From contig OX597818.1 in NCBI GenBank assembly GCA_951406725.2, forward strand, positions 123,504,001-123,568,000: a DNA stretch of 64,000 nucleotides, in the 5' to 3' direction. Positions 28,471 to 29,759 of this stretch are shown here, piece by piece. The notes under the pieces are model-generated. The model did no database searches and was not told where the DNA came from. It saw nothing but the letters and a program-made list of their open reading frames with translations. Numbering within the stretch: the stretch's first letter is position 1; every line of letters begins with the position of its first letter. Origin of the DNA: Octopus vulgaris. Taxonomy: Eukaryota. A program made the translations under genes and the position numbers.

Positions 28471-29759
28471 ATCCTTATTACACACAGACGAACACAGAGG
28501 GGACAAATACAATGTAGAGCTTTTCGAAAGAAAAAAGGGAGAGGAAAATAGAAAAAAGAGGAAAAAATTCCGATCAAAAGGGATCGTGTATCACGGAACA
28601 GAGTTAAAATGTAAAAAACAGATTAGGTTTATCCATGGAAAGAAAAAACCGACGAAAAGGACCACGGTAACCTCAGGCAGGGAGGGAAAACACATAAGAG
28701 CAAAGCGCTCTCTCTCTCTCTCTCTCTCTCTCTCTCTCTCTCTCTCTCTCTCTCTCTCTCTCTCTCCCTTTGAATTTACAGGATTATGCTCAAAGTGATT
28801 TCGTCATTCGCGCATACCATCTTTGCTACATTTACCCACCTTTTATTGAATTTTTCATGAGACAAAACTTGCCTCTCTATTCTCACCTACCTTTTTCAAG
28901 TGAGCGATTGGCCAGATAGGAAAGTGTTTGTCTCTAAAACTTTCGCTCGAGTTCACCACACACATTCTTTCACCATGGCCACCAGTACGATGAAAACTGC
29001 CTTGTCTTCCCGGTTAAGGGAAGGTGGTGGTACAATTTTCACGATAGACTCGGCCGACAACCGAATTCGTCCCACACGTGACAGCAGCCGTTCGGCATAA
29101 AGCCACAGGTCCGAAATGGTTGGACACTGCACGAGTGCGTGCAGAACGGTTTCGTCGCTCTGACTGCATCTCGGACAAGTCGGTCCAATGTATCTTGAAC
29201 CATGCCTATAGAGCTTATCCCGAACGGGAAATGCTTCCCGATAGCACTGCCAGGCCAGGGATCTCTGGTGATTGTCCATAGGTCCCGGCTCAAAATTTGT
29301 CCTGAACAAGCGGGTCAGGTGTTCCTTGTCGACGCCCATATTCTCCTCGAGAACGTCGTCGCACCTCCCCTCCACTAATCCTCTATAGAACACCTTCGTG
29401 GAATTGAAGTTTGGTCCTGGACGACAGAGTTGCTTGAGAGCAAGACGGCACTCGCGGCGCCATTCGTCTAGCCTCGATCTCTGATCAACGACTGCAGTTC
29501 GGTCAAAGAAACGAGCTGCGGGAAAGCGTGCCTCATAAACAGCGACCACGCCTTGTTCACCGTCGTTTATGAAGCGCCGGAGATATCATAGTCTCAGCGA
29601 ATGGATGCGCATCATCAACCACGGCACGCCCAGCCCTCCATTTTGCGGGTGTTGACAGCAAATGGATCCCTTACCATCGGTAAGCTTCCCTTCCACAAAA
29701 AGCGGAAGATTATGCATTCCAGTTTGGTGATGGTAGGATCGGGACAAGGCACGGCGGTC
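28471..29759 (-). mobile_element. Tx1-like LINE 3' fragment between (GATA)n and (GACA)n arrays
   Basis: IIFRFLWKG..GGLGVPWL..LRL; CPRCSQSDETVLHALVQCP. A (CT)n tract sits inside at ~28708-28767. Confidence 0.88.

Follow-up and report, generated by a model that had tools for sequence, protein, structure and literature searches.

The A tail of an abundant SINE in Octopus vulgaris is homologous to the 3' terminus of L1/Tx1-type LINEs of the same genome, a relationship of which we are nearly certain, and it likely serves as the signal by which a Tx1-type reverse transcriptase (RT) picks up and copies the SINE RNA. A first-pass annotation of the window, i.e. the entire stretch of 64,000 nucleotides analysed here (contig OX597818.1, positions 123,504,001 to 123,568,000), had derived the SINE tail from a Tx1 LINE end, and homology to an L1/Tx1-group 3' terminus is upheld both by a profile of LINE ends and by shuffles of the family ends. 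The profile, built from 78 distinct ends of autonomous Tx1-type families with a training set free of SINEs, detected 60 of 61 SINE A tails (median 24 bits) in 864 kb, comprising 800 kb spread evenly over the genome plus the window. The reversed profile yielded two matches (best 7.9 bits), and several of the top non-SINE matches of the profile are members of its training set.

The homology is confined to the last ~55 nt and has a sharp 5' edge. SINE and LINE are 0.73–0.93 identical over this stretch and 0.45–0.56 identical just upstream, compared to a null mean of 0.49 and a null maximum of 0.62. Among themselves, the LINE families are 0.64–0.80 identical over the last 55 nt and 0.38–0.64 upstream, the close pair A/A2 (0.73) excepted, i.e. 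the LINE 3' end is better conserved than the remaining 3' UTR. Each of six family ends aligned to the SINE tail better than 1000 of 1000 shuffles. The family A end is collinear with the SINE tail down to the terminus (82% identical), the family B end is a better match to its 5' half, and the family C end better matches the 3' half, with which it shares 19 consecutive bases. In total, this terminus is common to four autonomous families and to non-autonomous relatives that encode only ORF1. An autonomous family with the exact SINE tail was not found by pattern searches: an autonomous end equal to the 3' half of the SINE tail gave no matches, a second pattern led to four non-SINE ends, none with ORF2, and a pattern for tails in a LINE context returned almost solely SINE variants. 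The CR1- and RTE-like ends in six loci gave no A-tail match, the two weak matches falling in flanking repeats. In the random sample, the majority SINE tail reads AGTAAA where the LINEs have AATAAA; this hexamer thus seems free to change in the SINE.

Within the window, the 17-mer at 7560–7576, for which an exact LINE counterpart had been claimed, indeed recurs once only, at 28491–28507. This SINE copy and all three LINE ends lie on the minus strand, the letters given in the first-pass annotation being those of the plus strand. The 50-nt SINE tail quoted there is an idealised reading, from which the copy at 7539 differs at two places; the LINE-end stretches quoted for ~27495 and 22441–22465 are both present. 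It had also been stated that all three LINE termini match in the right place. All do lie at the 3' ends of minus-strand LINE fragments, before (TATC)n or (ATT)n, but only the end at 28475 is convincing within the window. This end (fragment 1, 85% identical to the young family A) reached a local alignment score of 36 with the SINE tail, equalled by 0 and 3 of 5000 dinucleotide shuffles. The corresponding values are 22 (87 and 72 of 5000) for the end at ~27495 (fragment 2, whose 3' end at 27481–27540 is decayed) and 26 (11 and 46 of 5000) for the end at ~22440 (fragment 3, 78% identical to family B), and an unrelated second SINE near 14850 scored 33 to the A tail in the same window scan. Significance against shuffled sequence, named in the first-pass annotation as the control to pass, is therefore clear for the 28475 end and all six family ends, and borderline for the 27495 and 22440 ends. 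The window alone thus offers one good and two borderline tail matches, and the genome-wide data remove the doubt. The frames of the Tx1-type LINEs in the window contain zf-RVT. Two further Tx1-type ORF2 fragments (47398–48098, plus strand; 45136–45887, minus strand) have no recognisable 3' end.

Table 1. Features of the SINE and of the Tx1-type LINEs in the window (positions count from its first letter).
Feature	Position	Strand	Remarks
SINE dimer	868–1275	-	A-tailed, then B-tailed unit
SINE monomer	2744–2975	-	A tail at end; 16-bp target duplication
SINE multimer	7365–8133	-	head, three 184-nt core + A-tail units, last core with B tail
SINE A tail	7536–7600	-	contains the 17-nt match (7560–7576)
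SINE monomer	14460–14692	+	A tail at end; 16-bp target duplication
SINE monomer	17609–17839	-	A tail at end; 19-bp target duplication, one mismatch
SINE dimer	21174–21568	-	A-tailed, then B-tailed unit; within (ATT)n
LINE fragment 3, Tx1-type	22411–23533	-	5'-truncated; older family B; shared end 22411–22466, then (ATT)n
(TATC/TGTC)n	27324–27481	-	tail of fragment 2
LINE fragment 2, Tx1-type	27481–28365	-	5'-truncated; coding part 80% identical to family A2
(TATC)n	28367–28471	-	tail of fragment 1, into which fragment 2 inserted
Shared end of fragment 1	28472–28525	-	last ~55 nt, common to SINE A tail; decayed, hairpin damaged; profile match 28523–28477, 19.2 bits
LINE fragment 1, Tx1-type	28472–29763	-	5'-truncated; ORF2 C-terminus with zf-RVT, 3' UTR
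(TATC/TGTC)n	29759–29906	-	upstream of fragment 1; likely target microsatellite
SINE multimer	39063–40223	-	five A-tailed units into old B0-tailed copy
SINE dimer	42337–42736	+	A tail at end; 16-bp target duplication
SINE monomer	43011–43236	+	A tail at end; without clear target duplication
SINE dimer	50278–50675	+	A-tailed, then B-tailed unit

The genome search for the window LINE covered 2.8 Gb in 227 contigs, and the best 150 of 24,579 candidates, many with tied scores, were scored. In full-length copies, ORF1 includes a CCHC knuckle, and ORF2, which is 1159 codons long, encodes APE endonuclease, RT, and zf-RVT domains. A CCHC knuckle in ORF1 is a feature of the Tx1 clade; here, the motif itself can be seen, and the Pfam zf-CCHC match (E = 0.0021, 18.5 bits) lies below the 20.8-bit cut-off. 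The best solved relative of ORF2 is human L1 ORF2p (E = 2.6e-60 vs. 2.3e-20 for R2), which, together with the two ORFs and the domains of ORF2, is as expected for the L1 group. Among named proteins, one from Argonauta hians (70%) and one from a coral (38%) come closest, the coral protein bearing the name Tx1. The RT tree (28 rows) unites families A, A2, B, and C and the Argonauta protein in one clade (99/99), which is nested with the coral Tx1-named protein (100/99) and stands apart from elements of this genome that we take, by recognition of their sequences, to be CR1-like and RTE-like. A protein search for reference Tx1 or L1 sequences returned unnamed or coral proteins only, and "Tx1-type" is used here as a provisional label for families placed by their grouping with the coral protein, in a tree without reference Tx1 or L1 sequences, and by their target preference. 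The RTs of the other tail-sharing families are 46–87% identical to that of family A.

Family A is young, with many near-identical open 1159-codon ORF2 frames, and has a target-sequence preference, 30 of 37 5' junctions lying within TATC-type repeats. For family B, most alignments of the 5' junctions broke off within the element. As the (TATC)n tail of each family A/A2 copy is a new target, copies pile up head to tail; such piles are seen at G000 C1:71.62–71.65 Mb, at C1:60.40–60.42 Mb, and in the window (27324–29906). Three family C copies (L201, L202, and L203) have an identical 3' flank, possibly reflecting a second preferred target or 3' transduction. Among the family F 3' flanks (L271–L284, L326, and L327), 8 of 17 represent a single site immediately before the frame of a Mariner-like transposase (weak Pfam Transposase_1 match, E = 0.01), which recalls Tx1-Mar, and family C copies in L275, L277, and L280 occupy a site similar to this one. 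A candidate short non-autonomous family (L099) was rejected, being a truncated family C LINE.

The SINE consists of a 46-nt head and a ~118-nt core, followed by tail A or tail B. Motifs resembling the A and B boxes of RNA polymerase III promoters are visible by eye in the head, as judged by the box consensus. ARAGORN found no match in the head, and Rfam returned none at an E-value of 1 for 42300–43300, thus also no U1/U2 snRNA-derived head as in SINEU. The label "Meta-like" had to be dropped, since the bivalve Meta primer has no match in the window at three mismatches and the core is, by eye, unlike the BivaMeta-SINE1 consensus. A bipartite RTE-derived or Ceph SINE would have a core and an old tail that stem from RTE 5' and 3' UTRs; two core motifs are absent from the supplement of PMC5786205, and the SINE gave no match to RTE 3' ends in the loci examined.

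Exact matches to a 34-letter motif of the A tail number 58,404 in the genome (reversed control: 0). Per 800 kb, 39 elements with 44 A-tailed units were counted, which corresponds to some 150,000 units by extrapolation. Core divergence is 4.9% for A-tailed (n = 49), 11.7% for B1-tailed (n = 25), and 14.6% for B0-tailed units (n = 13), with 28 of 115 units unclassified, which places the tails in the age order B0 > B1 > A. The LINE ends diverge by 0.6% (family A), 5.0% (C), 8.5% (F), 10.6% (B), and 18% (E), values that come from top-scoring copies and are biased accordingly.

Target duplications scored at least 10 in 28 of 51 A-ended SINEs (30 of the 51 coming partly from loci picked by tail pattern and not at random) vs. 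1 of 100 mismatched pairs. The 23 clear duplications are 10–23 bp long, mostly 14–19 bp. Many of them start with TAT- or GGTA-like bases, and the new target bias that had been suggested for the A-tailed SINE is to this extent visible, but only weakly shown. A-tailed copies stop at the LINE's own terminus, and none of the 51 lies in (TATC)n. Among B-tailed SINEs, duplications of 11–18 bp are clear in 7 of 22, and 7 of 22 B-ended copies lie in ATT-type repeats. For family C, the 5' end lies inside the locus in 18 copies; 6 of these have duplications of 12–18 bp, with starting bases unlike those of the SINE.

That multimers accompany the A tail was borne out: 56 of the 63 internal junctions listed (64 in total) join tail A to core position 1–3. 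Many single copies end in a few bases identical to the start of the core, suggesting that source copies were multimeric and that short target matches served for priming. The terminal B units of multimers (7.7%, n = 6, and 15.3%, n = 5) are as old as or older than A units (5.9%, n = 16). Recent tandem duplication was rejected as the sole cause of the multimers, since units within arrays (7.1% divergence, n = 50) are scarcely closer than units of different arrays (9.3%, n = 210). Insertion into older copies, the 5' join being guided by homology, would fit these observations but is not proven.

The shared tail may also form a hairpin. In 30 non-SINE ends chosen by the upstream motif alone, with the hairpin disregarded, 75.8% of the cells of a 4-bp stem are paired and 24 changes are two-sided. 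Stem covariation is 0.414 vs. 0.235, a value that 500 shuffles never attained and that slid controls (at most 0.216) stayed below; the choice of this stem followed inspection of the data, and the shuffle test ignores relatedness, so that related sequences can pass it. A custom stem score is higher than in all 300 base shuffles and in 296 of the 300 arm swaps (4 of 300 reach it). RNAalifold predicted no consensus pairs on either alignment (26 and 30 sequences), and z-scores from single-sequence folding are weak (best -2.4; SINE -1.5). SINE tail A and families C and F have the same stem and a 5-nt loop; the hairpin of family A is built on another stem, with a loop of 6 nt. On balance, it is plausible that the LINE enzyme reads the hairpin, and we lean moderately towards this. 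A perfect 11-bp hairpin with the 5-nt loop of the SINE tail is also found in the 5' UTR of family A (L034:3101–3135), about 135 nt inside the 5' end, and related hairpins occur in other LINE 5' UTRs. Tail B0 resembles this family A 5'-UTR hairpin, with 12 of 13 copies at no more than 5 of 500 base shuffles in a comparison chosen post hoc.

The A tail had been thought to replace an older tail of the SINE. Its younger age agrees with this (4.9% vs. 11.7–14.6%), but the older tail may itself be Tx1-type. B tails that match the motif have a 4-bp stem around the same 5-nt loop, and the B1 hairpin also occurs in three non-SINE ends that have the Tx1-type upstream motif, two of which match B1 at 8 further bases beyond the forced hairpin letters. 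The LINE-end profile found none of 30 B tails, and in alignments of B tails with LINE ends 1 of 18 comparisons stood at 0 of 1000 shuffles, the rest ranging from 22 to 952 of 1000 and being mostly borderline. We regard the chances that tail B is an older Tx1-type tail as close to evenly balanced and treat the idea as a lead only. If so, the A tail would be an update within one partnership and not a switch of LINE clade.

Four non-SINE ends that are closer to the SINE tail than the autonomous ends belong either to family E, represented by 8 loci, or to family F, of whose 1178 candidates 40 were scored. Both combine an ORF1 homologue with a LINE 3' end and have no ORF2 before the tail. Five family F copies of 1.5–1.7 kb lie between target duplications of 12–22 bp; two family E copies were checked and had no convincing target duplication. 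One family E copy equals the SINE tail at 51 of 54 aligned bases and is the closest tail found. Another pattern returned 62 ends, 30 of which were read: 3 have ORF2 upstream, 13 have ORF1 only, 14 have neither, and none carries the SINE core.

Taken together, an older B-tailed SINE may have gained the A tail through template switching to, or recombination with, a Tx1-type RNA, the most likely donor being an ORF1-only relative like family E. The SINE would be transcribed by RNA polymerase III from the box-like motifs of its head, and ORF2p would bind the pyrimidine tract and a 3–4 bp hairpin and prime about 10–15 nt downstream, with short matches between RNA end and nicked target in place of poly(A). 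New SINE copies would land in old ones to give multimers, likely owing to a match between the bases that follow the tail and the head–core junction of the SINE itself. Family C appears to be the best-fitting mobiliser among the autonomous families sampled, by its age (5.0% vs. 4.9% for the SINE), hairpin, and duplication length (12–18 bp).

A Tx1-derived tail could be a mere passenger on a SINE moved by another LINE or by a tail-blind enzyme, and the modest structure signal, the duplications of B-tailed copies (11–18 bp, 7 clear of 22), and the presence of CR1, RTE, and R4-like LINEs in the genome would be compatible with this. We nevertheless consider it improbable, as SINE copies end at the LINE's own terminus, this stretch is the sole one kept between LINE families and by the ORF1-only relatives, and the A-tailed form, with its 58,404 exact motif matches, is the youngest. 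No more probable is mobilisation by the young (TATC)n-targeting family A/A2, to which the window copies at 28475 and 27495 are nearest. The 82% identity of the family A end, the TAT-like start of many A-tailed SINE duplications, and the existence of older A-like copies speak for this family, but 30 of 37 family A junctions vs. 0 of 51 A-tailed SINEs lie in TATC-type repeats, divergence differs (0.6% vs. 4.9%), and the family A hairpin has its own stem and 6-nt loop. SINE and family A thus differ in target bias, and the lack of A-tailed SINEs in TATC repeats makes a Tx1-type family other than A/A2 the more likely partner.

Transfer in the opposite direction, with the LINEs taking their end from the SINE, is very improbable. 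It could draw on the near identity of one family E copy to the SINE tail, which might also reflect conversion in that copy, but the end is common to families with RTs 46–87% identical to family A, the LINE copies exceed the SINE in age (family B 10.6%, family E 18%), and the SINE core is found on 0 of 30 non-SINE ends. Chance likeness of pyrimidine-rich sequences with an AATAAA motif can be all but dismissed. In its favour are two borderline window ends out of three and the score of an unrelated SINE, which is almost as high in the window scan, but the LINE-end profile and the family-end shuffles already exclude it, and the reversed motif control (0 vs. 58,404) also speaks against it. A tail taken from a Tx1-type LINE and read by an enzyme of that kind is hence the reading we prefer.

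Tail sharing between SINEs and LINEs is textbook knowledge, with the L1 group as the known exception. In a survey covering over 800 L1-clade families, three SINEs with an L1 tail came to light, each in plants or an alga, and strict 3'-end reading has been proposed by Ohshima to be ancestral and later relaxed, as stated in the available portions of both papers (PMC3472496, PMC3747384). The L1-clade pairs given there are ZmSINE2/3 with LINE1-1_ZM in maize and sorghum and SINEX-3_CR with L1-1_CR (Ohshima 2012, PMC3472496; Ohshima 2013, PMC3747384). As far as these portions go, the octopus pair resembles them in an L1-group LINE, a conserved stretch within the last ~45–80 nt, and the sharing of this end with a SINE; the hairpin with compensatory changes and the tRNA-type head of those pairs may have counterparts here. 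Unlike those plant and green algal pairs, it has an animal host, its tails end in microsatellites or without a repeat, and ORF1-only relatives share the end. A table of 58 SINE/LINE pairs includes no animal L1 or Tx1 partner (Ohshima 2013, PMC3747384). As in stringent pairs, the 3' terminus is shared in the same position and orientation, and duplications (10–23 vs. 12–18 bp) and ages (4.9% and 5.0%) overlap, the LINE samples being small and biased.

In crocodilians, SINEU was inferred to be moved by Tx1-Mar from common targets, heads, and age, and the accessible text reports no LINE match for the 3' half of SINEU-1 (Kojima 2015, PMC4494074). The octopus SINE is likewise an animal SINE that would move by Tx1-type elements, but here the two are linked by a common 3' tail, and Rfam detects nothing snRNA-like in the head. 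Our working model resembles that of UnaL2/UnaSINE and ZfL2, in which, according to the excerpts at hand, ORF2p binds a stem-loop in the shared 3' tail (Hayashi 2014, PMC4176376); those are L2-clade systems and experimentally shown, unlike the L1/Tx1-group system inferred here. The "TX1" in the available part of that paper is a mutant name and not the element. Family A resembles Kibi and Koshi, Tx1 elements described in the accessible text as targeting (TC)n or (TTC)n (PMC4494074), in inserting into a microsatellite, its own target being (TATC)n. Families E and F resemble HAL1, ORF1-only L1 derivatives according to the available portion of Kojima 2018 (PMC5786205), in having an ORF1 homologue and a LINE 3' end, no ORF2, and, in family F, a target duplication; unlike HAL1 as portrayed there, their ORF1 has a CCHC knuckle and their end is a structured tail common to a SINE. 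Mollusc SINEs are described as persisting by tail change in the accessible parts of the work on MetaSINEs (Nishihara 2016, PMC4824008) and bivalve HCD SINEs (Martelossi 2024, PMC11481361), the partners named there being CR1, CR1-Zenon, L2, and Nimb, and the octopus SINE has no visible Meta domain.

Our literature search found no description of this SINE/Tx1-type pair; Repbase, SINEBase, Dfam, and subscription papers lay outside its scope, and an earlier mention there is possible. No such pair is named in the available portions of Kojima 2018, Nishihara 2016, Matetovici 2016, Martelossi 2023 and 2024, Marino 2022, or the 2026 Octopus vulgaris repeat annotation. The partnership is of a known kind, in a LINE group and kingdom for which we found no reported case. 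Strict reading would be extended to animals by a Tx1-type group that combines a conserved, structured end with a high-copy SINE and with parasites encoding only ORF1, and a Tx1-type LINE would likely be the driver of part of the SINE expansion reported, in the parts of the papers available, for octopus genomes (PMC13282606, PMC8967140). Because family A has many open ORF2 frames, RNA choice by an L1-group ORF2p without poly(A) is directly testable.

More speculatively, and with somewhat less than even confidence, cephalopod Tx1-type LINEs in general might read a pyrimidine tract and a CUUGU-type hairpin instead of poly(A). They would be exploited by a guild of ORF1-only elements and by a SINE that was always Tx1-dependent. 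This SINE would have exchanged its tail at least twice (B0, B1, A), thereby keeping pace with the enzyme then in use, and multiplied to about 150,000 A-tailed units. If true, this would be a first case in animals of a stringent L1-group system and would favour strict tail reading as ancestral in the L1 group and lost in mammals.

The window contains several other repeats. A second abundant SINE of ~420 bp, with an internal microsatellite and a short repeated tail, is present at 14720–15145, 13111–13438, 16260–16870, and 30843–31267, with more copies at 41036–41400, 48147–48584, and 55462–55847; its TG-rich middle gives the second-best A-tail score in the window. A third, tRNA-like repeat family occurs at 30357–30760 and 6268–6455. 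Among (TAA)n runs lies a broken LINE with zf-RVT and an apparent C-terminal restriction-like nuclease (18340–21117, plus strand), which we take to be R4/Dong-like. A ~550-bp repeat is found within (ATT)n runs at 21771–22348 (minus strand), 45904–46360, and 46682–47228 (both plus strand), with one copy directly after the family B LINE tail. Finally, a 298-codon frame at 56708–57604 (minus strand) has weak C2H2 zinc-finger matches and is possibly a host exon.
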